NCBI GenBank assembly: GCA_963762255.1 | Contig: CAVXKA010000003.1 | Span: 704,001 to 768,000 of the forward strand | Origin: Candidatus Eiseniibacteriota bacterium | GTDB taxonomy: Bacteria > Eisenbacteria > RBG-16-71-46 > JABDJR01 | Reading direction: 5' to 3' | Length of the DNA stretch: 64,000 nt | In this document: positions 15,977 to 34,604 of the stretch, in pieces | Numbering within the stretch: position 1 is the first letter of the stretch | Layout of the letters: the number at the start of each line of letters is the position of its first letter | Notes under the pieces: generated by a model | Databases searched by the model: none | What the model was told of the DNA's origin: nothing | What the model saw: only the letters and a program-made list of their open reading frames with translations | Position numbers and translations under genes: made by a program

Positions 15977-18774
15977 CTACGCCGTGGTGCCGATCGCGGT
16001 CTCCGTTCCCTCGCTGAGCGCGGCGTGCGCCGCCGCCAGCCGCGCGATCGGCACGCGGTACGGCGAACACGACACGTAGTCGAACCCGAGCCCGTGACAG
16101 AAGAACACCGAGTCCGGATCCCCGCCGTGCTCGCCGCAGATGCCGATCTTGATCTTGGGGTTCGTGCTCCGCCCGCGCTCCACCGCGATCCGCACCAGGT
16201 CGCCCACGCCGGTCCGGTCGAGCGAAATGAACGGATCCTGCTTCAAGATCCCGTTGGCCAGGTAGAACGGCAGGAACCGCCCCACGTCGTCGCGGCTGAA
16301 GCCGAGCGTCATCTGCGTGAGATCGTTCGTCCCGAACGAGAAGAACTGCGCGGTCTCGGCGATCTCGTTCGCCGTCAGCGCCGCGCGCGGCACCTCGATC
16401 ATCGTCCCCACAAGGTAGTCCAGCTTCACGCCCATGCGCTCGAGGGTCTCGGTCGGCCACCCGCACCACCACGTCGCGCTGGTTGTCGAGCTCGGTCTTG
16501 TTGCCGACGAGCGGGATCATGATCTCGGGGAGAACCTCGACCCCTTCCTTCTTCAGGTCGCAGGCGGCCTCGATGATGGCCCGCACCTGCATCGCGGTGA
16601 TCTCGGGGAAGGTGATGCCGAGGCGGCATCCGCGGTGCCCCAGCATCGGGTTGAACTCGTGGAGGATCTCCACGCGCCGCAGGAGCAGCTTCTTCTCCTC
16701 CAGCTCCGCCCCCTTCTGCCCCTTGGCCTCCATCACCGCGATCTCCACCATCAGCTCTTCGCGCTTGGGGAGGAACTCGTGGAGCGGCGGATCGAGCGTG
16801 CGGATGGTGACCGGCTTGCCCGCCATCGCCTTGAGCACGCCGTAGAAGTCGCTCTTCTGCATGGGGAGGAGCATGTCGAGCGCCCCGAGGTATCCCTTGG
16901 CCGGAGCCGCCGCCTTCTGCTCGGCGTCCCGAAGCCGCGCTTCGCGCGTCCGCCTTGTCGTGCCCGCCCGCCTTTTCGCACGCGGCGCGCGCCGCAGCCA
17001 GCTCGGTCTGCGTGGCCCGATACTCGCCGGCGGAAAGGATCATCTCGCGCACCCAGCGGATGCGGTCCTCGCCGAAGAACATATGCTCGGTGCGGCAGAG
17101 GCCGATTCCCTCCGCGCCCATCTCGATCGCCTTCTTGGCATCGCGCGGAACGTCGGCGTTCGCGCGCACCTTCAAGCGGCGGAACGAGTCGGCCCACGAC
17201 ATGAACTCGGCGAACTCGCCGCCGACGGTGGGCTCCATCAGCTCGGCCTGGCCGAGCATGAGCTCGCCGGTGGTCCCGTCGATCGTGACCCAATCGCCTT
17301 CCTTGACCGTGACGTCGCCGACGCGCAGCAGCCGCTCCTTCTCGCTCACTTCCGCGGCGCCGCACCCGGCCACGCAGGGCTTGCCCATGCCGCGCGCCAC
17401 CACCGCCGCGTGCGAGGTCATGCCGCCGGTGGCCGTGAGAATCCCCTTGGCCGCATCCATGCCGTGGATATCGTCGGGGTTGGTCTCGGCGCGGATAAGT
17501 ACGACCTTCTCGCCCTTTTCCGACCAGGCCAGCGCGTCGTCGGCCAGGAACACCGCGCGACCCGCCGCGGCGCCGGGAGAGGCTGGAAGTCCCGTGGCGA
17601 GCGTCTTGGGCTTCTTGGCCGGGTTCACGCGCGGGTGCAGCAATTGGTCGAGATCGCCCGGCGGCACGCGCAGCACCGCCGTCTTCTTGTCGATGAGCCC
17701 CTCGTGCACCATGTCCACCGCGATCCTCACCGCGGCGGCGCCGGTGCGCTTGCCGGTTCGCGTCTGCAACAGGTAGAGCGTGCCGTCCTCGATGGTGAAT
17801 TCGAAATCCTGGATGTCCTTGTAGTGCTTCTCCAGGTGATCCGTGATCTCGCGCAATTGCTTGTAGGCTGCGGGCATCTCCTTGCCGAGTTCGACGATCG
17901 GCTTGGGGGTGCGAATGCCAGCCACCACGTCCTCTCCCTGCGCGTTCGTGAGGTACTCGCCGTAGAACTCCTTCACCCCGCTGGCGGGATTACGGGTGAA
18001 GCCCACGCCGGTGGCCGACGAAGGTCCCATGTTGCCGAACACCATCGCCTGCACGTTGACCGCGGTACCGAGATCGTCCGGGATCTTGTTCTGGCGGCGA
18101 TAGTAGGTCGCGCGCGGGTTGTTCCAGGAGCGGAACACCGCGTCGCGGGCCATGTCGAGCTGCGCCCTCGGATCCTGCGGGAAGTCCTTTCCCGAGGCTT
18201 CCTTCACGATCGCCCGGAACCGGGCGACCAGGAGCTTCAGATCCTCGGTCCCGAGATCGAGATCCAGCTTCACCCCGCGCTCCTTCTTGAGCGCGGAAAG
18301 CTCCTCCTCGAAGCGCCGCTTCGAGATGTCGAGTACGACGTCGCTGAACATCGAGATGAAGCGGCGATAGCAGTCCCACGCGAAGCGCTCGTTGCCGGTC
18401 TTCGCGGTGAGCCCCTGCACGCTCTTGTCGTTGAGCCCGAGGTTCAGGATCGTGTCCATCATCCCGGGCATCGAGAACTTGGCGCCGGATCGCACGCTCA
18501 CGAGGAGCGGATCGGCGGGATCGCCGAGCTTCTTGCCGAGGAGCTTCTCCAGGCGCTCGATGTACCGATCCTGCTCCGTCTGCACCGCCGGAGGAACCCG
18601 GCCTTCCTTCTGATACGCGATGCATACGCGGGTGGAGATGGTGAAGCCGGGCGGCACCGGGACACCGGCGTTCGTCATCTCGGCGAGCCCGGCCCCCTTT
18701 CCGCCCAACACGTCCTTCATGCCGCCGTTGCCGTCCGCTTTGCCGCCGCCGAAGAAGAAGATTTCCTGCTGCAA
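15977..18774 (-). CDS. ppdK: pyruvate, phosphate dikinase (two 1-nt frameshifts)
   Basis: [30 protein letters not shown] (phospho-His), [40 protein letters not shown] are spread over ORFs 16426-18774, 15945-16874 and 15977-16435. Removing one base near 16945 and one near 16451 gives 931 aa. Confidence 0.95.
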
Positions 18775-21587: not shown

Positions 21588-23075
21588 TCAGTTGTTGTCG
21601 ATCTGAGCGCGCTGGAGCTTGCCGCTATAGTCGATATAGACCGACTTCCATTCGGTGAAGATGTCCAGCACGGTGTGTGAAGCCTCGCGGTGACCGTTCC
21701 CGGTCTCTTTCACCCCCCCGAAGGGAAGGTGCACTTCCGCCCCGATCGTGGGGCCGTTGATGTACGTGATGCCGGCCTCGATGTCGCGGACGGCGCGCAT
21801 GGCGCGGTTCACGTCCTGCGTGTAGATCGATGAGGAGAGACCGAAGACGGTGTCGTTCAGCACGTGGATCGCCTCTTCGAACGAGTCGACCACCAGGACC
21901 GAGAGCACCGGACCGAAGATCTCTTCCTGGGCGAGGCGCATCGAGGGTTTCACGCCCCCGAAAACGGTCGGTTCGTAGAAGAAGCCGCGATCGAAGCCCG
22001 CCCCGGCGAGCGGGCGCCCGCCGCACAGCAGCTCGGCGCCCTCCTTCTTGCCGATCTCGACATACTTCGCGACCACTTGGCGCTGCGACTCGCTCACGAG
22101 AGGACCGACCTGAACGTCCTCGTCGAGGCCGTTCCCCACGCGCAGCGCGCGGGTCGCCGCCACCAGGCGGTCGGTGAACTTCTGCGCGATCGGCCGGTGG
22201 AGGATGAGCCGACTCGTGGCGGTGCAGCGCTGACCGGTGGTGCCGAACGCACCCCAGAGGATTCCCTCCAGAGCGAGATCCATGTTGGCGTCGTCCATCA
22301 CGATCTGCGCGTTCTTTCCACCCAACTCCAGCGAGACACGCTTCAAGGACTTGCCGCACTGCTCGGCAAGCCCCTTGCCGATGTCGGAGGATCCGGTGAA
22401 GGAGATCACGCGGACGTCGGGGTGCGTCACCAGCGGTGTACCCACGCGCGATCCCCGTCCCGTAAGGAAGTTCACGACACCGGAGGGAATCCCGGCGTCG
22501 GCCAGCGCGGCCACGAATCGCGCGGCGGAGGCCGGAGTGTCGGTCGCGGGCTTGAACACCACGGTGTTCCCGCACACGAGCGCCGGGAAGATCTTCCACG
22601 ATGGAATCGCCATCGGGAAGTTCCACGGCGTGATCATCGCGCAGACCCCGATCGGCATGCGGAAGCTCATGCACATCTTGTTGGGGAGTTCCGAGGGCGT
22701 GGTGTCGCCGTAGAGGCGGCGGCCCTCACCCGCGGCGAAGAACCCGCAGTCGATCGCCTCTTGCACATCGCCCCGAGCCTCGGTCAGGACTTTTCCCATC
22801 TCCCGAGTCATGGTCCGGGCGAGGTCTTCCTTCCGCTCCTGGAGGAGCCGGGCCGCTCCCTGGACGATCTCGGCACGCTTGGGGGCGGGGACGAGGCGCC
22901 ATTCGTCAAAGGCGCGGCGCGCCGCGGCCACCGCGGCATGGACGTCCTCTTCGGTGGAATCCTGAAAGAGACCGACAAGATCGTCGTGATCCGCGGGGTT
23001 TCGATTCTCAAAAGTCTTTCCCGACCGCGCGGGCACCCAACGCCCATCGATCAGATTCAGAAATGTCTCCGCCAT
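21588..23075 (-). CDS. NAD(P)-dependent aldehyde dehydrogenase
   Basis: ITPWNFP, FTGS, LELGGKN, GQRCTA, EEIFGPV, PFGG. ATG 23075 behind GGAGGAG. Confidence 0.96.
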   Translation of the reverse strand: MAETFLNLIDGRWVPARSGKTFENRNPADHDDLVGLFQDSTEEDVHAAVAAARRAFDEWRLVPAPKRAEIVQGAARLLQERKEDLARTMTREMGKVLTEARGDVQEAIDCGFFAAGEGRRLYGDTTPSELPNKMCMSFRMPIGVCAMITPWNFPMAIPSWKIFPALVCGNTVVFKPATDTPASAARFVAALADAGIPSGVVNFLTGRGSRVGTPLVTHPDVRVISFTGSSDIGKGLAEQCGKSLKRVSLELGGKNAQIVMDDANMDLALEGILWGAFGTTGQRCTATSRLILHRPIAQKFTDRLVAATRALRVGNGLDEDVQVGPLVSESQRQVVAKYVEIGKKEGAELLCGGRPLAGAGFDRGFFYEPTVFGGVKPSMRLAQEEIFGPVLSVLVVDSFEEAIHVLNDTVFGLSSSIYTQDVNRAMRAVRDIEAGITYINGPTIGAEVHLPFGGVKETGNGHREASHTVLDIFTEWKSVYIDYSGKLQRAQIDNN

Positions 23076-23236
23076 CTCTCTCCTCCCACCGCACACCGTC
23101 TCAACCCGCCGCGGCGGCGCGCCGGCTGAGCGGGACATCGAGCGGATTCATCTCGCAAGGGAAACGCACCCACGCCGCGAGGCCGCGGGGTCGAGGCGGC
23201 CAGGCAGCTCCACGAGTGCGCCGCGTCGCGCCGCGG

Positions 23237-25045
23237 TCAGCGGACGATTACGAAACGGCCGGTGGCCGTCTCCCCCGACGCCTCCACGCGATAGAGGTAG
23301 ATCCCCGGAGCGACATCTTTTCCACCGTCATTCTTGAGATCCCAGTCCAGGGAGTCGTCGCCCTCCTCATGGCTCAAGCTGCGGACAAGGTCCCCGGACA
23401 CCGTGTAGACGTCGACTTTGGCCCGTGAAGGCAAATTGACGAACTGAACCCGGGGCTCGCCCGGAAAGGTCTGTTTCTCGGCCGCCGCATGGGGGTTGTA
23501 CGGATTGGGAACGACCCTCACCTCGCCTAGGAGCGGCGTTTCCACCCGCGCCGTCTTGCCGGGGTAGAGGGGGTTGTTCTCGTACATCCCCTCCTCGATG
23601 GTCTGACGTTCGAAGATCTCCGCCCGAGGAGGATTGGTGATCGGGTCGAGATGGGCGGCGAACCACGTAATCGAGTACCAGTAGGCGAACCCGTTGAAGG
23701 GTCCCTCGAGGGGCTCCAACGCGCCTGTCGGCTCATCGGGCCGCAAAGGGTCCCGTCCCGTTCCGCGGGTAATGATCGAGTCGGGGTCGACGAATCGCCT
23801 CGGCCCACCCACCCCAAAAGTCCAGGTCGAGTCCAGGAGCGAATAGGTCCGCAGAAGTTGGGCGGCGGACGGATCGGAACTCGTTCCTCTCCAGATCTGA
23901 TAGCCGGCGAAGGCCGTATCGGACTGAGTGAGCGTGTAGCGAACGACGCCGGCAGCACCATCCGCTTCCGCCCGACTTACGCGCGCCTGCGTCTCGATGT
24001 AGGTACCCTCCCAACCGCTCGATAGGGCCCGACGCACCGTCATCCGGAGCGGGGCCAGCGCGGGTTGGCTGTCCGCCAAGAGCACGGATTGGTAATTCGT
24101 CAACTGCACGGTTGTCCCGGAAAGCACGACACTGCCGGTGACCGCCGCCACCCGACCGATCGCGTTGAGCGGGGCCTGGGTGAGTCCGTAGACGTTGATG
24201 CCACGACCGGATCCGTCCTGGATATAGCCGCTGGGCACATCGGTGCGCGCACCCACGGGGACGAAGACCTGTCCGATCACGGTCACCGGACCCGCGGCGA
24301 ACGAGGCCGGGTTGGCCTGGATCTGATCGATGTTTACGACCGATCCCGCCACAGTCTGGAAGGCCGCAGGACTCCCGCCGCTGAGAGCCGCGCCGTCTGC
24401 GCCGGTGACGCCGGAGACCGCGACCGAATAGCCGGTCGCGCTCGGCAGGGCGGCCGATGTCCGGAGGATCACGGTCTGCCCGTTCTGCTGGAGCCGCGCC
24501 GCCTGCACGGTGAGGCTCGGCGTGAACGCGTAGTTCTGCGCGAGCACGGCTTGCTGGGCATTCACCGGCCGACTGAAGGTGACCGCCACATAGTCCCGGC
24601 CGTACTGGAAGGCTCCAACAAGTACGAAGGCCGCCGGGTATTGAACCTCAGGCCTCGCCCCAGGTACGAAGATGTCGCGCCGCGCTCCCACCAGAAGCTG
24701 GTAGTTGCCCGGGCGCTGCCCTCCTGCGCCGGCTCCACCGAGCAAGCCGCCCAGCACCGCGGAGGAAGACGGAAACCCCAGGCTGTTGGGGACGACGAGC
24801 TGCAGCGTCGGGATGTCCTGGCGTTGGGCCGGAGTCACCGTATCCCCGGGGGCTGCATTCCACTCGATCTGGACCTTCCGGTCGCCCGAGCTCGCGGCGG
24901 TGATCTGCACCGATTGAGCGCGCGCGGCGACAGCGGTCAACAACACCGTGGCGATGGGAACCAGAAGGGTGACGAACGCCGTCCGAATCCCATGGCGCAA
25001 ACGATCCTGCTTGATCACGACGATACTCCTAGCCCGAGCCGACAT
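23237..25045 (-). CDS. secreted multidomain protein (Ig-like, OB-fold-like) with C-terminal FlgD-Ig/CTD-like domain; start uncertain
   Basis: Hydrophobic signal ending AARA-Q; VTFSRPV...YSVAVSGV Ig-like; VTVIGQV...YIQDGSGRGINVY OB-like; FAGYQIWR; VRVVPNPY...FVNLP...VYTVSGDLVR...WDLKNDGGKDVAPGIYLY. Confidence 0.8.
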   Translation of the reverse strand: MSARARSIVVIKQDRLRHGIRTAFVTLLVPIATVLLTAVAARAQSVQITAASSGDRKVQIEWNAAPGDTVTPAQRQDIPTLQLVVPNSLGFPSSSAVLGGLLGGAGAGGQRPGNYQLLVGARRDIFVPGARPEVQYPAAFVLVGAFQYGRDYVAVTFSRPVNAQQAVLAQNYAFTPSLTVQAARLQQNGQTVILRTSAALPSATGYSVAVSGVTGADGAALSGGSPAAFQTVAGSVVNIDQIQANPASFAAGPVTVIGQVFVPVGARTDVPSGYIQDGSGRGINVYGLTQAPLNAIGRVAAVTGSVVLSGTTVQLTNYQSVLLADSQPALAPLRMTVRRALSSGWEGTYIETQARVSRAEADGAAGVVRYTLTQSDTAFAGYQIWRGTSSDPSAAQLLRTYSLLDSTWTFGVGGPRRFVDPDSIITRGTGRDPLRPDEPTGALEPLEGPFNGFAYWYSITWFAAHLDPITNPPRAEIFERQTIEEGMYENNPLYPGKTARVETPLLGEVRVVPNPYNPHAAAEKQTFPGEPRVQFVNLPSRAKVDVYTVSGDLVRSLSHEEGDDSLDWDLKNDGGKDVAPGIYLYRVEASGETATGRFVIVR

Positions 25046-25119
25046 CGGCTCAACATGCCGAGGCGCCCCGCCCATCTCTGGACACGGGCGCCTCCCCTGA
25101 CCTCAGAACCATGCGCCCC

Positions 25120-27294
25120 CTACGGGTTGGCGGTTGGGGGCTGCTCCTCGCGGAACCAATCGATGGCGCGGTTGAAGGTCTCCTGCGCCTGGTCCTTCTT
25201 CATGAAGTACAACTGGAACCCGAACCACTGCGTCCGACCGTGTGGACGCGCCAAGTCGGGGTCGTGCCACCGCACGGCGTTGAGCTTGTTGTTATAGGTG
25301 CTACTGGACTTCTTGGCTTGATAGGCGAAGAGCGAGTCAATGACCCCGGTGTAGCCCGCGTCGTAGGTGTAGATCGCCTCGAAGACCGCCTCCTGGTGAC
25401 TGATCGAACCCTTATAGGGGCTGATCTTGAGCGGATCCATATCCATCTGAGGGTAGATCACGGGTTCCCCCGGGAAGGGCTTGACCCCGATCATGTTGTC
25501 ATTGGGCACTGTGCCCCTGCCATTCATGATGCGGTCCGAGGCGAGCTTCATGAACTGGAAAGCAAAGGAGTTGGGCTCATCGTTGACATTCTTGGGGTAG
25601 GTCAAGTCGGCTTTCCCGTTGCCCCCGGCCGGCATCATCGGCGGAACGGTCATCGCTCCCCCGATCCACACCTTCCCCCCCGCGCTGAGGTACGCGCCGA
25701 GGAAGCGCCTCAGGGACGTGACCGCGATCAGTCCGGTAGCACCGTCGTAGCCGCTGCCGTAGCACTCCCAGACGACCAGCTTGTAGCGACCCAACTGCTC
25801 CAGCGTGGGTGGGATCGGCGCCGGGCTGAAGACGTCGCCCGGACCGTGGATATCGAAGGTGAAGAAGTCGGTGTCCATATCGAAGCGGCCGGAATCCTGA
25901 AACAGGGACAGCCAGAACGCGTCGCTCTGGTCGTCCTCGGGGTAGGTCGTTTCACGGCTGTCATCCACCAAGAGGACCTCTCGATCCAGCGAGAAATCCA
26001 GCACCTTCATGATCAGGGTCGCCATCGCGATCTTCCCGGAGAGGTCCCGAGCCCGCACATAGAGCACATGAATCCCCGGCTTCGTGAAGACGATGGGTTG
26101 GATGTTGCTCTTAATCTGACCCCAACCGCTCCACCCGGAATTGGGACCCTCACGCTCGAGATCGGGGATGTCGAGCCCCCAACTGTAGCCCTCGATGGTC
26201 CCACCGTAATCATCGGCGTTGCCGGTCCAGGTGAAGCGCAGCTTCGCGCCTACTGGAACCTCTACGGTGAAGGCGGTTCCGGCGCCGCGAAACAGGAAGG
26301 TCCCCAACGAGGGTTCGGTAAGCGTCAGGTACGGGTTGCCGCTTCCCGCCAACGCCTGGAACCTGAATACATTGCGCCCGAATTCCAGGAAGGGCTCCAC
26401 CGCCCCCGCCTCGTCGACGGCGCGCACGCCGAACAGGTAGCTTCCCGGGACCGCCAGGAATAACGTCTTGCTGAGCGTGTCGCCCCGCTGGTACGTCCAG
26501 GTCGGATCGCCCTTCGTATACAAGTGGGTGGGATTGGCTGAGAGAATCGGGAGCGCCGGCACCAGCGTGTCCAGCCGAAGGAGCTTATAGACGTACCCGA
26601 CCGGCTTCTTACGGGGGTCCGAGGAGTCCGGATCGATGCCGTCCCAGGCCACCGTCACCGAAGTGCCCAGGGCCAGCGGTTGATCCGAGATGACCGGTCT
26701 GGAGATCGTGGCCTTCGGCGTGATCGTGAACGCGCGGTAGCCGATGCGGTCGAACTTGGAGTACGCCCCGTCATCGTCCATCGCACGCAAGTACACGGCG
26801 TGGAGTCCCGAGAAAGTATCCGCCGGCCCCCGGCCCGATGATCCAATCGAGATCGTGTCCGCTACGGGGGTCATGAACGCGAAGGACCGGCTGAACTCGA
26901 TGGTCTCGATCCACCGGAAGGAATAGGTGTTCCCGTCCACCGATCGAGACACCACAAGCGTGTCCTGACGATCGGAGGGACCCGGCAGGATCCGAATCGA
27001 AATGTCGGCGAACCTCTCGGGGTACGCGATCATGGAATCCGTGAATCCCTCAGAGGGCGGATCGACCGCGTACTCGAAGTGCTGGATGATCCCGTCGAAG
27101 TCCCATCCGCTCCAGTACACGCGGGCGGTGTACGCGGCCAGGCTCCCGGTGAGAGGCCCCCCGGTGATCTGGACGGTCGGCGGCTGGTTGAGGATCAGAT
27201 TGTCCTTCTCGTGGCCGCACCCGGCCGCGAGTCCTAGGAATACGATGCATACCAGGATGGGCAGCACGCCTGGCAGTCGATGGCTCTTCATCAT
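25120..27294 (-). CDS. large lipoprotein with repeated Ig/FN3-like 'WxGxDxDG' domains and C-terminal alpha/beta domain
   Basis: Lipobox LAAG-C; NQPPTVQI...WSGWDFDG, WDGIDPD, WTGNADDYGG; xRAxD strands; VLLVDD...YKLVVW...GGKVWIGG. Confidence 0.8.
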   Translation of the reverse strand: MMKSHRLPGVLPILVCIVFLGLAAGCGHEKDNLILNQPPTVQITGGPLTGSLAAYTARVYWSGWDFDGIIQHFEYAVDPPSEGFTDSMIAYPERFADISIRILPGPSDRQDTLVVSRSVDGNTYSFRWIETIEFSRSFAFMTPVADTISIGSSGRGPADTFSGLHAVYLRAMDDDGAYSKFDRIGYRAFTITPKATISRPVISDQPLALGTSVTVAWDGIDPDSSDPRKKPVGYVYKLLRLDTLVPALPILSANPTHLYTKGDPTWTYQRGDTLSKTLFLAVPGSYLFGVRAVDEAGAVEPFLEFGRNVFRFQALAGSGNPYLTLTEPSLGTFLFRGAGTAFTVEVPVGAKLRFTWTGNADDYGGTIEGYSWGLDIPDLEREGPNSGWSGWGQIKSNIQPIVFTKPGIHVLYVRARDLSGKIAMATLIMKVLDFSLDREVLLVDDSRETTYPEDDQSDAFWLSLFQDSGRFDMDTDFFTFDIHGPGDVFSPAPIPPTLEQLGRYKLVVWECYGSGYDGATGLIAVTSLRRFLGAYLSAGGKVWIGGAMTVPPMMPAGGNGKADLTYPKNVNDEPNSFAFQFMKLASDRIMNGRGTVPNDNMIGVKPFPGEPVIYPQMDMDPLKISPYKGSISHQEAVFEAIYTYDAGYTGVIDSLFAYQAKKSSSTYNNKLNAVRWHDPDLARPHGRTQWFGFQLYFMKKDQAQETFNRAIDWFREEQPPTANP

Positions 27295-27304
27295 GACGCT
27301 CACC

Positions 27305-28990
27305 TCACTGCTCAAGGGTGACTCGGAAAGCGAACGAGAGACTCGTGACCCGCCCCGACGCGTCGCGCGCCGTCAGTTCCAGGGTGTTGACCCCGGGGCG
27401 GATGACGTTGGCGCCGCCGGCCGGCGATACCGGATACGACCGTTCCCCGGGAGCATCCAGAGAATCCGTCGGTTCGTACCCGCCGGTCGCGCCGTTCAGC
27501 TTCGCCGAGTACTCTTCGACGTGGCTGAGTTCCTCCTCGACGACCCGGTTGATCTCGAGGGCATGGGAGTTGGGGGGCGGTTCGTGAATGTCCAAGGCCA
27601 CGAACCGGATCTGGAACTCGGGGTACGTGCCGTCACCATTCCGTGGGATGGTGACCGAGACGGTGTCGGGTCGGCCGCCGCCGGGCTTTGGCACCCAGAG
27701 CGGTTGTTCGGCCCCCTGGGCGTCGAGATACGTCACCGACACGAAGAAGGCGTTGTAGTTGACCTTCACCACGAGGGTGTCGGGATTCCCCCACCGGCCC
27801 AACAGATCGCGGGCACGGATAAGGAACATGTAGTCCCCGGACTTGAGATCTCTCGCCGCGCTGAGGGCAAAGCTGTTGATGGCGGGAAACGGTTTCCAAC
27901 TCCCGAACCGGACACCCGTACTGTCGTAGGCCGGTCCGCCACCATTGGTCAACTTGCGGTAGCTATAGGAACTGATGTCGTAGTCGCTGCCGGGATTCAC
28001 CCTCGCGTCCCGATGATCATCGAACGCGGTGTAGCTGAACACGATTTCCCGACCGGCGCCGGTGAGATCGGACAGGGTCGTCCCGCTTGGATAGATCTTG
28101 CCTGTGCTGAACTCGCGGAAAACGCGCGCACGGACCGGAGTCGTCTCCTCGCGGGGGTCCACGATCCAAGTCACCGGGTTGAAGTTGACGATCACCGAGC
28201 GGACGGAATCCGGCTGGGTCTTGGCGCCGGCGTCATCGATGGACCGCACCTGCAAGACCTCACTGCCGCTGAAGTAGACCAGCTTCCCTCCGCTCAGCTT
28301 GGGAGTGAAGTCGCGCGAGAAGCTTGTGTCGGCGAGCGAGCCGCCGCGGAAGCCGAGGTCCGTGCTCGATCGGAACTCGTACCCCACCACATAACCGCCA
28401 TCATCCAGGTCGAAGCCGTCCCAGCTTGCCGAGATCGCCCCTCCCACACCGATGGTGTCGGTGGGATTGTACCGGTCGTTCGAACGGAGGACCAGGCGGC
28501 GCGGATTTCCGGCCCGGTCGGTCCATGTGCCCTCGGAGGCTTTGAACCGGACGCCCGGGAAATTGAAATCGTGGGCGACGAAGTAGGCCCAGGCGGGAGA
28601 GGGGTCCACCTTGCCTTCGTTGTCCACGGCGCGAACATAGAACCGGTGCCCCAGAAGCTGCGGGTTGTCCGCAGTGAGCACGAAGACGCTGTCGGTGCTG
28701 GTCGTCCGGTAATAGCCGGCAAACCCCGGGGTGTCCTCCCCTGGGACCTTGTTGGAATCGGTGACTGAGTACTCGTAGTGGTCGATCAGGCCGTCGGGAT
28801 CTTCACCGTTCCAGAACAGTCGGATGCGGTAGTAGGCGAGGGAACTCTCCGCCGGGGCGCGCGAGATGTAGGTCTCAGGAGGCAGATTTCGATCGAAGGT
28901 CGACGGCGTCTCGCGACGGCAGCTCCAAAGGAAGAGAAGACCGGGAAGGCATGCCCAGCCCAGAAGCCCCCCCCAGCGCGAAACCTTCAT
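27305..28990 (-). CDS. lipoprotein, paralog of the downstream lipoprotein
   Basis: Lipobox-like LWS-C; NLPPETYI...WNGEDPDG, WDGFDLDDGG; VRAVDNEG, VRSIDDAG, IRARDLLG, LTARDASG. Confidence 0.8.
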   Translation of the reverse strand: MKVSRWGGLLGWACLPGLLFLWSCRRETPSTFDRNLPPETYISRAPAESSLAYYRIRLFWNGEDPDGLIDHYEYSVTDSNKVPGEDTPGFAGYYRTTSTDSVFVLTADNPQLLGHRFYVRAVDNEGKVDPSPAWAYFVAHDFNFPGVRFKASEGTWTDRAGNPRRLVLRSNDRYNPTDTIGVGGAISASWDGFDLDDGGYVVGYEFRSSTDLGFRGGSLADTSFSRDFTPKLSGGKLVYFSGSEVLQVRSIDDAGAKTQPDSVRSVIVNFNPVTWIVDPREETTPVRARVFREFSTGKIYPSGTTLSDLTGAGREIVFSYTAFDDHRDARVNPGSDYDISSYSYRKLTNGGGPAYDSTGVRFGSWKPFPAINSFALSAARDLKSGDYMFLIRARDLLGRWGNPDTLVVKVNYNAFFVSVTYLDAQGAEQPLWVPKPGGGRPDTVSVTIPRNGDGTYPEFQIRFVALDIHEPPPNSHALEINRVVEEELSHVEEYSAKLNGATGGYEPTDSLDAPGERSYPVSPAGGANVIRPGVNTLELTARDASGRVTSLSFAFRVTLEQ

Positions 28991-29059
28991 GAAACACTAG
29001 CTCCTTTCGAACGAGCACAAAACGCCTCCGCAGCTAGGGTTGCCTCCCTGAAACAACGG

Positions 29060-29088
29060 AAAGTACCAAAGGCGTTCAGCACTGTCAA
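29060..29088 (-). promoter_or_regulatory. sigma70 promoter of the lipoprotein operon
   Basis: TTGACA-N17-TACTTT with TGn extension, upstream of AAAGGAG RBS and ATG 28990. Confidence 0.65.
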
Positions 29089-29122
29089 GTCCTCGGCCGC
29101 GGCGCCTCGTCGGAGGCGGCGC

Positions 29123-29163
29123 AAAAAAGCAAGGGGCTGGAGGCCAAGCCTCCAACCCCTTGC
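29123..29163 (-). terminator. Rho-independent terminator of the large surface-protein gene
   Basis: GCAAGGGGTTGGAGGC-TTG-GCCTCCAGCCCCTTGC stem followed by TTTTTT on the minus strand. Confidence 0.9.
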
Positions 29164-29217
29164 GAACCAACTTACCGAACTTGATCCGGCAGCCGCCGGA
29201 TCGGCAGCTAACTGAGA

Positions 29218-32200
29218 CTAGTTACCGTTGCGAACGACAACCAGCTTCTTGGCGTATTCCTCGTCGTTGGCCTTCAGGCGGTAGAAGTACACACCGCTGG
29301 CCACCGAACGAGAACCAGAGTCCGTGCCGTCCCAGTGAACGACGTTGAGACCTTCCTTGGCCACGCCGTCGAACACGGTGCGAACCAAGCGGCCGTTGAC
29401 GTCGAAGATCTCCACGGCAGCCTTGGCATCACGCGCCATGGTGAACTGGATCGTCCCCTTCGCACCGTTCAGGAGCGGGTTGGGGGCGAAGTTCGCCAGA
29501 GCGGTCTTGAAGCTGGGCTGACGCGGATCCGTCGGCACGAAGGTGCCGGCGGTCGGGTCGTCGCAAGGAGCGGGCGCACCGGTGTAACCGAACCAGGTGA
29601 GCACTTCCTCAAGACGCTCCGCGATCGCGGGCTCCGGGGTCGGAGCGAGAAGACCGAACTCACAAACACCGACGTCGTCACGACGATAGTGGAGGGAGAC
29701 GCCGTCCACCACGGTCTTGTAGTCCGGGCCGCCGGTTGCTGCGTTGTACACCGACGCGTACTGAACCACACCCTTGAAGGTGTCGTTGTACTCTTCGTCG
29801 CCCGCCGGGGCACCCATGCCGCCGACGAACAGGTCGAGCACGTCGAACGAACGAAGCTGCGGGCAGCCGTTGCCCTGAGCTTGGTGATTGTACACGCGGC
29901 CGAGGCTGCCGGCGACGAGCGATCCGCTCACCGGATCGAGCGGCACGCAGGTAGCCAAGGACTGGATACCCGAGGTGCTCGGGCAGGACGGATCGCGCAG
30001 CGTGGCGCAGTTGAACGTGACGCCGCAGAACTCGTTGAGGAGACGGAGCGCGCTCGGCTCCGAGGCCGCCTCGAGCGTCATGCTCTCGGCGATGCCGTCA
30101 CCGTTCAGGTACAGGTTGTTATACCCGAGACCCGGTTCGGTGAGGGACAGCCACGGAATGAGAACGTCCGCGTCTTCCTTCACGAGGGTGAACGCGTTCA
30201 GAGCGGCACTGTTCCAGACGATCGCCTTGTAGCCAAGGGCCTGGACGATCGTGGCGCCGAACTCCGTGTTCAACGGACGCCCGAAGGACGCCTGCTGGCT
30301 GGACGGAGCCAGAACGCGGTACTTGTCCCACGCCGTTCCCTCGAAGTTGGCCGAAGATCCGGTCAGGACCGCACCCAGGGCGGGCTCGATCCAAGGCGCA
30401 GAACCGCGGTCGGTCGCGTGATCCACGAACAACACGCAGTTGAACGTGGAGTCGGCGGCCATCGAGGACGGATGGACCTCGAACGGGAAGGGAGCGGTCG
30501 TTGCGGTGTCAGGCAGCGTGTACCAGGCGGTACCCGCGATGAACTTCGTCTTGAAGAACATCTCGATCCGCGTCCCGGGCGTGAACAGATTGTCCGGGAA
30601 GATGTCGTTCACAAGACGAGTCTGCTGGCCTTGCGGATCCAGGTCGGCCGGATCGCGATCGGTGTCGTTACCGACCAATCCGAAGCCTTCCATGTAGGCG
30701 GTCATCCAGCGGTTTGCAACCGTGCTGCCACCCTGCTCGGCCGTGTCGATGCGGGCTGCGTACCAGTTGAGACCGTCTTTGGTCTCCTGGAACACGAGGC
30801 CCGGGTTCCCTGCGAGCCACGCGGCCACAGCCGCGGTGACAACCGGGGCCGGGGTCCACGCCAAACTGCACGTACACTTCGGCGCCACCCGCCGCACCAC
30901 CGATGGTGATCGTGTCACCAGTCGAGCTGTTCGGCTCGGGGACGGAGAAGCCCTTGATGTTGTTGCAGTCGAGGCGGCCGGCCGCGTTGATGCGCAGCGA
31001 ACCGTTCTCGGGGAACGAGTCCTGAGGTTCGTCGATCTCACGAGCGGTGATCACCGGAGCGCCGGGGATGCCGGCCGCGCCGAAGGCCACGTTGTCGAAG
31101 TACGGGGTGTGATTGGTCACGCCCGAGCAGTTCCCGTAGTAACGGCAGTAGTTGAGAGTCCCAAGGCCGATACGGATCTGCTCGGCACCCGTCGAGATCA
31201 CGGAGTTGAAGTACCGGGTGTAGACCGCGGAGTCAGCACCGATCTCGTACTTGCGGCAGGTCGGAATGCCGCCGAAGTAGTAGACGTAGCCGTCCCCCAC
31301 GATTCCCGACGTGATGATCTTGCCAGTGTTGGCGCAGACTTCGGGATACCACTGAACAGCCTGGACCACGAAGATGTAGTTCAGGAGGGGCAGCTCGAAG
31401 TAGCCGTCATACCGGAAGAACTTCTCCGGAGCGCCCACGCGGCCGGCGGCCACGAGGTCGATCCAGGGAGACATGGCCACGTTGTCCTGGTAGAGGCCGT
31501 GGCCGCCCACGGACAGATCCTCAAACACCAGAACGGTGTCCTTGCCGTCCTTCATGAAGTCGCAACCGCAGGGGGTCAGCACATCGGGCAGGTCCGCCTG
31601 CGACACGAGGTCCGACCACTCACCGCCAGCACCCGGGGTCGCAGGAGCGAGCACCCAGCCGCCGCGGAGGTCTCGAAGGTTGGCGGAATGGATCACGGTA
31701 GCCCCGTCAAGGATCGAGATGTCGTCGATCACGAGCGGGCAGGTCGTAGCGTAGAGGCCGTCCTCGTCAGAGTAGGCACCGTCCGCAGCAAGGCAGAACT
31801 TGATGTTGAACGCACCCGAGTCGCCACGCATGTCGGTGCCTTCGGCCAGCACCAAGGAGGCGGTGCCGGAGGCGGGGCCGGTGTAGCTCGTGACGGTCAC
31901 GTCGCCGGAGCCGTCACCCGCGCCGGAGGTGTCGACGATCACGTAGCTGTAGTCCCAGCCGGGCTCCGTGTCGTTGACGTACTTGTAGCTCAGCGTCACG
32001 CTGGCGCCGGCGGTGTGGGTGAAGTTCGTGCTGTGGTAGATGCAAACGTACCAACTGTTGCCGTAACCAGAGCCACCCGCGTAGCAGAGTGCTTCCGCTT
32101 CGCCCTGGAACACGCCGGCATACAGCGAGCCGACGCCGGTGATGGCGCAAGCAGGCTCACCGGCCTGGCCGGAGATCCAGCGGAAGTACGGGAGGAGGCT

Positions 32201-32557
32201 GAACGTGTTGTCAACCCCGATCCACCCTTCCATCAAGGTGTGGAGTCCAGCGGCTTTGAAGGGGTTCAAGCCGGGTACAGAGCTGAAACTCGACCCGACG
32301 CCCGTGTCGAACGTCCAGATCGAATCCGGCAGTGCTTCCCAGCGCGCCGAATCTGCCGCCCAGACGGTGCCACCAAAATAGGTGGTCGCGATCTGGGCTG
32401 CTCCGAACACCCCCGTGTTGCTCGTCAAGTTCGCGTTGGGGGTCGTGTCCTCCAACATGAACTTCTGGAGGCCACCGGTCTGATCCACGGGCTTCGCGAG
32501 AGCCGGGACCGCCAGGGCCACCACGAGCATCAGGGTGATGCTCAAGGCTTTTCTCAT
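29218..32557 (-). CDS. ~1,112-aa Cys-rich secreted protein with C-terminal FlgD-Ig/CTD-like domain; candidate major surface protein (one 1-nt frameshift)
   Basis: GGAGGT RBS and signal MRKALSITLMLVVALAVPALA. ORFs 30668-32767 and 29218-31041 join by removing one base near 30841 (PGPG|VTAAVAAW). Ends NFAPNPL...IFDVNGRLVRTV...WDGTDSGSRSVASGVYFYRL...KKLVVVR. Confidence 0.85.
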
Positions 32558-32930
32558 CGTGCTACCTCCATCGTTGCAAGGCACTAGAGTTGAGCGCATC
32601 GAGTGATGGATGTTGTGCCATCCCACAGGGTGCCGGCCATCGTTCCCATATTCCTCGCACGACCGCCAGAGCGCGGTTCCAGCGGTGCCGCGAACTCGGT
32701 GAAGGCTTGCACCCCTGCCGAACTCACGGTCACGTCTCCGGCACTCTGATCCCCGGCTGAGCGACAACAGGGTTGTGTCAGGCTGGGGACTTAGTAACCA
32801 CCTGAAGACGAGTCAACCGCAACCCGATTACGGCTCACACGCGGGAACGCGCTCGCACCGGATGGGGAATCCCGAGACCGAGCTGACACGTCCCCTGGAG
32901 TATCAGGGAATAGCTACCGAACCCGAAAAC

Positions 32931-32959
32931 AGTATAAGGCCATTGGCTTTCCGTGTCAA
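32931..32959 (-). promoter_or_regulatory. near-consensus sigma70 promoter of the large surface-protein gene
   Basis: TTGACA(32959-32954)-N17-TATACT(32936-32931). Confidence 0.8.
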
Positions 32960-33765
32960 CCGAGACCGGCTTCTGATGACAGCAGGGTATGGAGTTGCGC
33001 GGGCTTGGAAATCCTTGGAGCCGGCTCATCCAGCCCCCCCCAACCAGTCCCAGCAGCCTCCCGAAGAGCGTCCCAGAGGCGGGTGGCGGGGCGGTGCGTC
33101 AAGGCCGCCAATCTCGCAACTTCCGACTTGCAAAGGACCTCCCCGATCTCCCCCGTCGCCGCCGTCCGCCCCCGATCCAGGACAAGCACCCACGGTCGAA
33201 GCGACACGAAGACCTCGTGCCGGTGAGTGGCTACCCAGAGACCACCCCGCATGGAGTCACTTCGCTCACGAAGTAATGCGACCACGCGATCCACCCCGGT
33301 TGCATCCAGAGCCGCATCCGGCTCGTCCAGAGCCCAGTGGTCGTGACCGGACAGCAGGAGCAGTGCGATTGCCGCGCGGCGTCGCTCCCCTGCGGAGAGG
33401 GTCCGAGAGGGGCGGGACAATCCGGCTCCCACGAGATCCACCGCCCTCAACACGGCCCGCAGCTCGGAGCGCCGTGAGCGGGGCGGCCGCGCGTCGCCGC
33501 ATAGATCCTCGGCCAGGTTTCGCCCCGCCAGGGCTCGCTCGGGGAGTTGAGGCAGATACGCAGCGTGTCCCCGCGGAGCGAGACCCTCCACTCGCCCCGC
33601 CGTGGGGCGAAGCGAGCCGCCGAGGAGTCGCAGCAGCGTGCTCTTCCCCGATCCTGAAGCGCCGAGCACGAGCCAGGGCCGATCGTCGGGACCCTCGACG
33701 TCCAGGGGGCCGAGACAGAAGGAACCCGGCCCCGGGTAGCGGTAGGTCAGCGCGTCGAGCCTCAT
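32956..33765 (-). CDS. ECF/CbiO-type ABC ATPase
   Basis: Walker A GASGSGKST, YLPQLPE, signature LSAGERRR, Walker B ALDEPD, ATH. Confidence 0.8.
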   Translation of the reverse strand: MRLDALTYRYPGPGSFCLGPLDVEGPDDRPWLVLGASGSGKSTLLRLLGGSLRPTAGRVEGLAPRGHAAYLPQLPERALAGRNLAEDLCGDARPPRSRRSELRAVLRAVDLVGAGLSRPSRTLSAGERRRAAIALLLLSGHDHWALDEPDAALDATGVDRVVALLRERSDSMRGGLWVATHRHEVFVSLRPWVLVLDRGRTAATGEIGEVLCKSEVARLAALTHRPATRLWDALREAAGTGWGGLDEPAPRISKPAQLHTLLSSEAGLG

Positions 33766-34604
33766 GGCATCACTTCCGGGGCGAGTCGGCGGGCCATCTC
33801 AGCCACGGAGTACCCCGTGCCGTCGACGGCCCACCCGAGATCGCGGAGCCGGCGCTCCATCCGCAGGCCCAGAGGCGGCTCGATCGAGGCGGGAAGCTCC
33901 GCGCGAAGCGCCTCGGCGGGCGGCCCCCAGACAAGGAGACGCCCCCGATCCAACACGCCCGCCACATCGGCCTCGGCTGCCAGTTCCCCATCGTGCGCGG
34001 CGAGAAGAATGGCCTGCACGTGCCCCCGATCCACGGCTTCGCGCAGGCGCTCCCAGATCATGCGACCCTCGCCCGGGCCCAGATAGAGAAACGGATCGTC
34101 GAGGAGGAGCAGCGCGGGGCGGAGCGCCAGCGCGGTCGCCACGAGAAGTCGCTCCTGCTCTCCCGGGGACATCGTAAGAGGATCGCGTCCGGCGAACGCT
34201 TCCAGGTCGAACTCGCGAAGCGCTCCCTCGACGCGGCGCACGACCTCCTCGCGGGGGAGATCGGCGTTCTCCAGAGTGAACGCGATCTCCTCCGCCGCGG
34301 TGGACGTCACGAACTGCGCGGCGGGATCTTCGAGCAGGAGCGCGCAGGACCGGGGATCGAGCCCTCCCCCGGCGGGGGACCGAACGACCCCGCGCGCGGG
34401 CGGCCAAAGCCCCGCGGCCGCACGGAGCAACGTGCTCTTGCCCGCGCCGTTGCCGCCCAGAAGGACACCGATCTCCCCGCGGCGCAGCGTGAGCGTCACT
34501 CCGACGAGCATCGGGCGGTGCGCCCCGGGAGGAACAACGTCGATGCCGGCCAATTCGAGGATCGGTTCGGCTTCACCGCCGCCCTCAACCGTCGACTCGA
34601 TCAC
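33762..34604 (-). CDS. ECF/CbiO-type ABC ATPase (divergent)
   Basis: Walker A GGNGAGKST, EDPAAQF...EEIAFTLEN (EcfA-like), MSPGEQER, LLLLDDP. GTGA overlap with the larC stop. Confidence 0.8.
   Translation of the reverse strand: MIESTVEGGGEAEPILELAGIDVVPPGAHRPMLVGVTLTLRRGEIGVLLGGNGAGKSTLLRAAAGLWPPARGVVRSPAGGGLDPRSCALLLEDPAAQFVTSTAAEEIAFTLENADLPREEVVRRVEGALREFDLEAFAGRDPLTMSPGEQERLLVATALALRPALLLLDDPFLYLGPGEGRMIWERLREAVDRGHVQAILLAAHDGELAAEADVAGVLDRGRLLVWGPPAEALRAELPASIEPPLGLRMERRLRDLGWAVDGTGYSVAEMARRLAPEVMP

Follow-up and report, generated by a model that had tools for sequence, protein, structure and literature searches.

The A-B-C-D locus

We report on a 64,000-nucleotide stretch of DNA, called the window in the following (C3:704001-768000, on contig C3 of genome G000), from a metagenome-assembled genome (MAG) of an uncultured soil member of Candidatus Eisenbacteria. 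Four genes for envelope proteins, here named A, B, C and D, lie side by side on its minus strand and occupy positions 23237-32959 (Table 1). The products of A and D end in C-terminal domains (CTDs) which resemble the sorting tags for secretion through the type IX system (T9SS); B and C encode predicted lipoproteins. With a probability of roughly 55% we consider the four genes to be a conserved surface module, likely a non-enzymatic assembly of T9SS cargo and lipoproteins, which could act as a coat or as a polymer- or glycan-binding adhesin complex.

The genome comprises 4.14 Mb in three contigs, is 93.6% complete and has a G+C content of approximately 68%. An earlier note, made from the sequence alone, had described at this place about 10 kb of envelope genes from a non-Bacteroidota lineage that are lower in G+C than their flanks, and all of this is borne out. 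The G+C content is 0.632-0.646 at 24-32 kb compared to 0.66-0.72 in most of the flanking 2-kb bins. Horizontal transfer as the cause of this difference was set aside; orthologous loci occur across the class. An aldehyde dehydrogenase (ALDH) gene and the gene of an ABC ATPase border the block. No translocon, barrel or motor part is encoded by the locus itself, and neither a glycosidase, esterase or peptidase nor any other catalytic domain was recognized in A-D with Pfam and NCBIfam. The motif HExxH is absent from all four proteins.

Table 1. Features of the A-B-C-D locus and of its surroundings (positions in the window).
Feature	Position	Strand	Description
Gene A	29218-32557	-	signal peptide, jelly-roll modules, GATase1-like domain, type-A CTD; two frames in this assembly
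A, N-terminal beta-sandwich region	31060-32389 (approximate)	-	mapped from orthologue residues 57-500
A, GATase1/ThuA-like alpha/beta domain	29560-30440 (approximate)	-	orthologue residues 706-1000
A, type-A CTD	29236-29484	-	TIGR04183 42.4 bits (cut-off 23), FlgD_ig 41.1 bits (cut-off 27)
Gene B	27305-28990	-	561 aa, lipoprotein (Cys24), Ig-like modules
Gene C	25120-27315	-	lipoprotein; 731 aa, or 724 aa in the database form starting at 27294
C, GATase1/ThuA-like domain	25138-25986	-	model residues 437-719
Gene D	23237-25075	-	612 aa; signal peptide, Big_5-like Ig domain, middle domain, FN3-like region, type-A CTD
D, type-A CTD (marginal)	23246-23446	-	TIGR04183 24.0 bits (cut-off 23), FlgD_ig 26.3 bits (cut-off 27)
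Promoter-like site P1 (gene A)	32931-32959	-	TTGACA, 17 nt, TATACT; 11 of 12 consensus positions matched
5' leader of A, ~370 nt	32558-32930	-	conserved 5' block with hairpin, unconserved spacer, ~85-nt block next to the ATG
Intrinsic terminator after A	29129-29163	-	stem of 16 pairs, 11 of them G-C, followed by a T run
Promoter-like site P2 (B-C-D)	29060-29088	-	TTGACA, 17 nt, TG-n-TACTTT; read from the sequence
5' leader of B	28991-29059	-
ABC ATPase gene	32956-33765
ALDH gene	21588-23138
Pyruvate phosphate dikinase gene	15977-18774	-	three frames in this assembly
Further CTD-tagged protein	54964-57615	+	883 aa; FlgD_ig/CTD tag at 57352-57540, 27.8 bits

Gene A

In the window gene A consists of two overlapping frames (30668-32767 and 29218-31041) with one extra base at about position 30839. 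This base is missing from every covering Logan contig in four out of four runs (two RNA, two DNA), and its removal is precisely what fuses the two frames. The orthologues in loci L003-L006 are single open reading frames (ORFs) of 1,113-1,121 codons, stop included. The same assembly also splits the pyruvate phosphate dikinase gene, which is a single frame in L004, and the SprA gene (C2:443578-448808), which has two frames here and is mostly a single ORF in relatives. On these grounds a pseudogene or a programmed recoding was rejected as the main explanation. In our reading the frameshift is an indel of the assembly, or a strain-specific lesion at most, and A is intact in the population. Given such single-base errors, other split genes of this genome should be distrusted. 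The intact protein would have about 1,112 residues and a mass of approximately 118 kDa; it is not the giant announced in the earlier note, as other CTD-tagged frames of the genome reach 3,478 residues.

The A protein is acidic (pI 4.3-4.6), contains 20 Cys and starts with a putative Sec signal peptide, read by eye as a hydrophobic stretch ending in ALA before KP. Its fold was modeled on the intact L004 orthologue from 39 sequences (pLDDT 80.5, pTM 0.72), and the residue numbers given for A refer to this orthologue. The model places beta-sandwich or jelly-roll modules at about residues 57-700. Residues 138-311 resemble the accessory domain of the M6 peptidase InhA2 (4yu5_A; Z 14.0, root-mean-square deviation (rmsd) 2.4, 138 aligned, VIA-align), and residues 54-500 resemble jelly rolls of the CBM/MAM type (Z ~10). 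A test for an M6 metallopeptidase yielded only this InhA2-like accessory domain; the profile NF052323 matches the CTD alone.

The jelly rolls are followed by an alpha/beta domain with a predicted GATase1-like fold, for which the best structural matches are 3rht_A (Z 15.6, rmsd 3.3, 210 aligned), 5xb7_A (Z 14.3) and 2gk3_A (Z 13.9). Within residues 700-1004 no His reaches a conservation of 85%. Four Cys are conserved in this region (709, 873, 903, 969), and they may form disulfides. The CTD at the end of the protein is modeled as a compact immunoglobulin (Ig)-like beta-sandwich, as in solved CTDs, and residues 1017-1113 fit the PorZ CTD (5m11_A, 684-776) with Z 10.1, rmsd 2.6, 88 aligned residues and 18% identity. 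The family of A orthologues comprises 262 representative clusters at E ≤ 1e-30, and each genome holds 3-5 A-like paralogues. For the N-terminal part of A every score in the protein atlas stayed below 0.8.

Lipoproteins B and C

The two lipoproteins that had been described as paralogous do appear related. In B the lipobox reads L-W-S-C; its Cys, preceded by G or S, recurs in the four orthologues from L003-L006. The lipobox of C reads A-A-G-C, and in an alignment of 20 family members its Cys26 is nearly invariant. Both proteins have the lipobox region and the first module in common (38% identity over 77 aa, E 3e-10). The motif WxGxDxDG, on which the earlier note had based repeats, is indeed present in Ig-like modules, but its strict form occurs only once in B and once in C, with looser versions in the later modules. 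B matches Y_Y_Y weakly (E 0.0023, below the Pfam cut-off); among the 120 matches of its family none is functionally named, and a few distant relatives carry Y_Y_Y (PF07495) or fn3. The C family has 114 relatives at E ≤ 1e-3 and no Pfam match. Searches of PDB sequences with B and D returned nothing meaningful.

An AlphaFold2 model of C, built with 20 family members (pLDDT 87), shows four beta-sandwich domains followed by a GATase1-like domain, and the best Foldseek matches are tandem FN3/Ig arrays. The GATase1-like domain aligns with 5xb7_A, the domain B of GH42 (Z 15.2, rmsd 3.3, 198 aligned), with the ThuA-like 1t0b_A (Z 13.6) and with the GATase1-like 3rht_A (Z 13.6). Its invariant positions include D444, D445, W509, G539, G540, G546, R675 and W713, and no Cys or His is invariant or nearly invariant in the alignment of the 20 family members, so that the glutamine amidotransferase triad is not conserved in C. 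The fold is thus predicted for both A and C and the Cys-His-Glu triad is conserved in neither. In the protein atlas, whose hits we treat as leads only, the C-terminal domain of C scores 0.92-0.94 (“xanthan lyase fragment”, DUF4960).

The domains could nevertheless be catalytic, or belong to a carbohydrate-active enzyme complex, in which case the module would process an extracellular polymer. Their best structural neighbors are accessory domains of GH42, GH164 and GH5-type glycosidases, of a beta-1,2-glucosyltransferase and of Agd3, PelA and NDST1, which is an argument in this direction. In GH42-type enzymes, however, the GATase1-like domain is itself non-catalytic. Together with the missing glycosidase, esterase and peptidase domains, the missing HExxH and the lack of an invariant Cys or His in C and of a conserved His in A, this makes an enzymatic role very improbable in our view.

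In one C paralogue (C1:815502-818132, L020; 876 aa) the signal peptide is of the plain kind, with no lipobox, and the protein ends in a CTD. Two database relatives of C with 866-899 residues also carry FlgD_ig. This indicates that the same passenger may be either lipid-anchored or T9SS-tagged. The C family further forms tandem arrays, with six copies in L040, two each in L036 and L010, and others at C2:959621-964011, L060 and L061. Family f2 has additional copies of C after D, which leads to the orders A-B-C-D-C and A-B-C-D-C-C.

Gene D and the C-terminal tags

D starts with a putative Sec signal peptide, again read by eye (a hydrophobic stretch ending in ARA before QS). In its L004 orthologue the Big_5 domain scores 33.7 bits (cut-off 23.6), and the middle domain recurs in proteins at C2:908147-911245. 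The CTD of D is 35% identical to that of A over 66 aa. Pfam PF18962 (Por_Secre_tail) remains under its cut-off of 27 for both proteins, with 25.0 bits for A and 15.0 bits for D. As had been proposed, two products thus end in FlgD-Ig/CTD-like domains, and the TIGR04183 scores together with the fit of the A model to PorZ support the view that both C-termini are true T9SS type-A sorting domains, D being a marginal case.

The number of such tags in the genome had been suggested earlier as a check. FlgD_ig has 90 matches at E ≤ 0.01, of which 70 exceed the cut-off, and all 70 end 10-24 codons ahead of an in-frame stop. Their position at the extreme C-terminus is the reason to regard them as C-terminal tags and not as flagellar FlgD domains. 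A further protein of the window also carries such a tag (Table 1, plus strand).

Conservation and linkage of the four genes

A scan of the genome collection found relatives of the locus proteins in MAGs of Candidatus Eisenbacteria/Eiseniibacteriota and on one contig labelled Gemmatimonadota. Database records of the A-C families, where they are named, read “hypothetical protein” or “FlgD immunoglobulin-like domain containing protein”, and nearly all of them come from Candidatus Eisenbacteria. Among 34 examined C-family loci of at least 6 kb, from genomes and metagenomes, 11 show the block ABC-A-B-C-D-ALDH, and in these 11 both flanks, ABC and ALDH, are present as far as the contigs extend.

A synteny comparison across related MAGs, also an idea of the earlier note, was extended to 12 distant loci from 11 genomes and eight other families. 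Order and orientation of A-B-C-D are kept in eight of these loci, representing seven families, at 24-47% identity. Two others end at contig edges and are consistent with the same order. The neighbors change: ALDH adjoins D in four of the 12 loci, no ALDH lies within 3.2-4.9 kb in five, and in three neither flank gene occurs within the fetched stretch. We also searched for B in a phylum sample of 41 genomes from 31 genera (including one genome flagged unpublished, G015). B was found at E ≤ 1e-20 in 16 of them and is present in ten families, that of the present genome counted. It is near single-copy, 16 of the 17 matches at this threshold being one per genome (G030 has two), and it adjoins a C gene in 14 out of 14 fetched loci. 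Linkage at such divergence and with changing neighbors argues for selection on co-location, and thereby for one functional module. Based on gene order we propose with moderate confidence that the four genes form a conserved functional module whose products may associate physically.

Several observations weigh against this proposal. A, B and D are absent from 23 of the 34 examined C-family loci, and 25 of the 41 genomes gave no match to B at E ≤ 1e-20, with 0 of 15 and 0 of 9 in two families. One distant locus has B-C only, and in another a different CTD protein replaces A before B-C-D. In this genome A has paralogues at C2:991555-995064 and C1:925409-928759, and C has paralogues at C2:959621-963969 and C1:815502-818132; they are separated from each other and surrounded by housekeeping genes. 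The dispersed paralogues and the C loci lacking A, B and D imply that the parts can work alone. A also has a promoter and a terminator to itself. Many loci retain the ALDH flank, so that part of the synteny is plain descent. Finally, hhalign of the A and C families is weak (probability 4.5%, E 0.009), and we therefore do not claim homology of their GATase1-like domains.

These points lead to the question whether A-D are four independent surface proteins that are neighbors by descent, each exported alone and without any assembly. The A and C paralogues which are dispersed or, as in L040, L010 and L036, arranged in tandem without the other genes would fit this well, as would the separate transcription unit of A and the housekeeping flanks retained with the block in family f1 and in the four distant loci mentioned above. 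Mere descent, however, does not sit easily with the order and orientation kept across seven families at such low identity, three loci having neither flank within the fetched stretch, nor with a near single-copy B that is found beside a C gene in all fetched loci, nor with the tight spacing of B, C and D. We therefore consider independence unlikely, though quite conceivable, and retain the conserved module as the preferred explanation.

Transcription units and leaders

The two promoters and two transcription units read by the earlier note are supported by comparison between loci. Both hexamers of P1 are invariant in five out of five aligned orthologous loci. The consensus promoter scan alone is at chance level (1 site compared to 1.1 expected), so that the support for P1 stems from its conservation. 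P2 lies below the scan threshold, and its TTGACA and TGnTA are conserved in eight out of eight loci. The hairpin core of the terminator is likewise conserved in eight out of eight loci, and the terminator divides the unit of A from that of B-C-D. The stop of B and the start of C overlap or are separated by about 10 nt, and 44 nt separate C from D. Judged from these signals, the arrangement supports two transcription units, A alone and B-C-D.

The leader of A attracts attention by its ends, which are nearly invariant in 5-8 orthologous loci even though the proteins are only ~50-57% identical. The 5' block carries a CCCTG/CAGGG hairpin; the near-invariant block of approximately 85 nt contains a GGATG/CATCC hairpin with a variable loop and a GGAGG Shine-Dalgarno sequence. 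The genome contains the leader only once. No Rfam family matches it; a search of window positions 22000-34000 gave only a chance-level hit to P11 with 24 bits compared to a gathering score of 70. RNAalifold detected no covarying pairs among eight loci, as is to be expected for an invariant block in which no covariation can become visible. We regard the leader as a candidate cis-regulatory RNA. One RNA-library contig of a relative fuses position 32924 to 32605 and thereby omits the unconserved spacer. The leader of B contains a 12-nt motif, GGGAGGCAACCC, which is invariant in eight out of eight loci and is found about 40 nt upstream of the conserved ribosome-binding site GAAAGGAG.

The six sequencing runs with the largest share of the sampled words of the stretch are metatranscriptomes from two studies, and contigs from RNA libraries span nearly all of A. 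RNA libraries may contain DNA, and such contigs neither prove transcription nor rank genes; they give a weak hint that A is expressed.

These features could mean that A is a major T9SS-exported surface-layer or coat protein, and that B, C and D are its anchoring or accessory parts. The surface layer of Tannerella forsythia is exported by the T9SS and offers a comparable case. A conserved near-consensus promoter, a long leader whose ends are invariant, a strong Shine-Dalgarno sequence, a strong terminator and the monocistronic organization would suit such a protein, and so would its acidic character, its mass, its several paralogues per genome and the metatranscriptomes as the top six holders of the stretch. 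The depth of contigs, however, cannot rank expression, with the same reservation about DNA in the libraries. The protein itself has many Cys and a mixed multidomain build, and no lattice-forming repeat was seen in it. A role of A as the major coat protein therefore appears improbable to us.

T9SS machinery in genome and phylum

A profile search for T9SS genes, another check named at the outset, found SprA and the PorV family above their cut-offs and no complete canonical set. SprA scores 356.9 bits with TIGR04189 (cut-off 200); in relatives it is a single frame of ~2,000-2,300 residues, up to 3,118. The PorV-family barrel scores 163.5 bits with NF033709 (cut-off 90) and 104.9 bits with the stricter NF033710 (cut-off 250), and the genome holds seven matches to this family. 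A PorU-like gene adjoins PorV and reaches 418.5 bits with NF033707 (cut-off 420) over model positions 62-1092. It belongs to a run at C3:162246-170878 (L018) that comprises the PorU-like sortase, the PorV-family barrel and a 1,080-aa M6-like protein, the gene after PorV, which is related to the “T9SS-dependent M6-like inactivated metalloprotease” (score 196 bits compared to a cut-off of 600).

GldM (TIGRFAM, PF12081 and PF12080), GldL and GldN had no match in this genome, and the TIGRFAM models, which include TIGR03513 and TIGR03517 for GldL/GldM, matched in no control genome either. These negatives consequently stand for undetectability with models trained on Bacteroidota and not for absence. 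The best GldK score is 72.2 bits (cut-off 350) and comes from lipoproteins with the formylglycine-generating enzyme (FGE) fold only, without K-L-M-N neighbors. PorZ (NF052228) is matched in C-terminal parts only, with 54.9 bits at best (cut-off 260), and PorP with 31 bits at best.

The picture is the same throughout the phylum sample. SprA occurs in 41 of 41 genomes, and so does the PorV family with at least 3-9 matches each; GldM and GldL were found in 0 of 41, a count obtained with no positive control and compatible with very divergent forms. The profile scores support a T9SS whose detectable machinery is reduced to SprA, a PorU-like sortase and PorV-family barrels, without detectable GldL, GldM and GldN. 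This reduced T9SS belongs to the whole phylum and not to the A-B-C-D locus. The idea of a T9SS-related, simplified surface system, put forward in the earlier note, is partly right: the detectable T9SS is reduced and the module is conserved, but no machine for secretion or assembly is encoded by the locus itself.

Out of the seven genes for PorV-family barrels, five are located directly downstream of a CTD-ending gene, the PorU-PorV pair included (C3:165547-169855, C1:1452336-1453675, C2:499954-501660, C3:492478-493697, C1:275841-276867). This adjacency suggests dedicated pairs of tag and barrel. Such pairs exist in Porphyromonas as PorU-PorV and PorZ-PorQ.

Proposed mechanism and significance

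From the observations described above we infer an export route, a surface location, a physical association and a binding function for A-D. A and D would cross the inner membrane via Sec. Their CTDs could then be bound by a PorV-family barrel at SprA, after which the PorU-like sortase would process both proteins. B and C would be lipid-anchored, with their Ig-like modules (Y_Y_Y/FN3-type) projecting as stalks. Surfaces for binding or assembly might be provided by the jelly rolls of A and by the GATase1-like domains of both A and C, none of which would act as catalysts. Together A-D might in this way make a coat or a polymer-binding adhesin. A complex prediction for the two GATase1-like domains, with residues 690-1012 of an A orthologue and residues 430-739 of a C orthologue, gave a score of 0.00, which speaks neither for nor against an association.

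To our knowledge, studies of type IX secretion have been confined almost entirely to Bacteroidota. There the proton-driven GldLM/PorLM motor is held to be essential. If this motor is truly missing in Eisenbacteria, they would show how the translocon works without a motor; if it is not missing, a very divergent energizer is indicated. One may go further and propose that the T9SS of Eisenbacteria truly lacks GldKLMN, retains only SprA, several PorV-family barrels and a PorU-like sortase, and serves approximately 70 tagged proteins per genome, with A-B-C-D as its flagship and A as a highly expressed coat protein that is controlled by its invariant leader RNA and, once exported, held by B and C. 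This combination is a long shot. Irrespective of it, A-B-C-D supplies a defined conserved cargo together with candidate partners for studies of export and retention outside Bacteroidota. The locus also defines four protein families for which public records offer no names beyond “hypothetical” or “FlgD Ig-like domain containing”.

Comparison with known systems

The occurrence of T9SS in other phyla of the Fibrobacteres-Chlorobi-Bacteroidetes (FCB) group has already been mentioned in print. In the TXSScan preprint, a data set of 2013 contained T9SS only in Bacteroidetes (10.1101/031039). A phylogenetic survey describes “incertae sedis” Bacteroidetes that have just 11 T9SS components and are without PorK, PorL, PorM and PorN (PMC7323717). 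Given this precedent, a reduced T9SS complement as such is not new. Among the papers that our literature search listed, none pairs Eisenbacteria or Eiseniibacteriota with T9SS, although supplementary taxon tables may be wider, and a search on T9SS with five other candidate phyla yielded nothing relevant. The earlier note had spoken of an undescribed system; this applies to the module and not to reduced T9SS sets. Undescribed so far is the phylum-wide pattern of a reduced T9SS in Eisenbacteria together with the module of cargo and lipoproteins.

Compared to the canonical T9SS of Bacteroidota (SprA/Sov, PorV, PorU, PorZ, PorQ, GldK/L/M/N), Eisenbacteria have the outer-membrane end in common, whereas GldL, GldM, GldN and a full-length PorZ were undetected here with the models named above and GldK only reaches the level of the FGE fold. 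As for cargo, A and D resemble the type-A CTD proteins of Bacteroidota (TIGR04183; PorZ 5m11) in possessing a signal peptide and a C-terminal Ig-like domain of ~80 aa. They differ in that FlgD_ig outscores Por_Secre_tail and in that their passenger domains match no described cargo family, a comparison which had likewise been proposed beforehand.

The GATase1-like fold common to A and C corresponds to non-catalytic domains with Z 12-15.6 over ~200 residues. Non-catalytic families of this kind are ThuA-like proteins, the domain B of GH42 and the GIFT domain of IFT52/GldG. Sequence similarity of the A and C domains to any GATase1-like family is below detection with Pfam and NCBIfam. Unlike the known families, they occur in fusion with Ig or jelly-roll modules, with a lipid anchor or a CTD in addition, and they are predicted to be extracellular.

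C also recalls the surface glycan-binding protein (SGBP) of the Bacteroidota levan utilisome (8aa2 chain G), which likewise has a lipid anchor, an Ig stalk and a globular C-terminal domain. In the Foldseek search with C, 8aa2_G takes rank 5 (E 9.2e-09), a match which rests on the Ig repeats. The difference is that no SusC/SusD-type genes lie near C and that the terminal domain of C is GATase1-like. A second relation leads to the Y_Y_Y domain (PF07495) of the Bacteroides hybrid sensor BT4663 (4a2l): residues 190-317 of C align with 4a2l_A at Z 8.8 and 21% identity. B and C, however, occur without sensor or kinase context, and their first module has a WxGxDxDG of its own.

A parallel in gene organization is the sprB adhesin operon of gliding Bacteroidota with its accessory genes sprC, sprD and sprF. 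Here as there the gene of a T9SS-type surface protein stands beside conserved accessory envelope genes. No sequence relation, however, was detected, the tags are of type A and not of type B, and the locus contains no PorP/SprF-type barrel; barrels of this type adjoin other CTD genes of the same genome.

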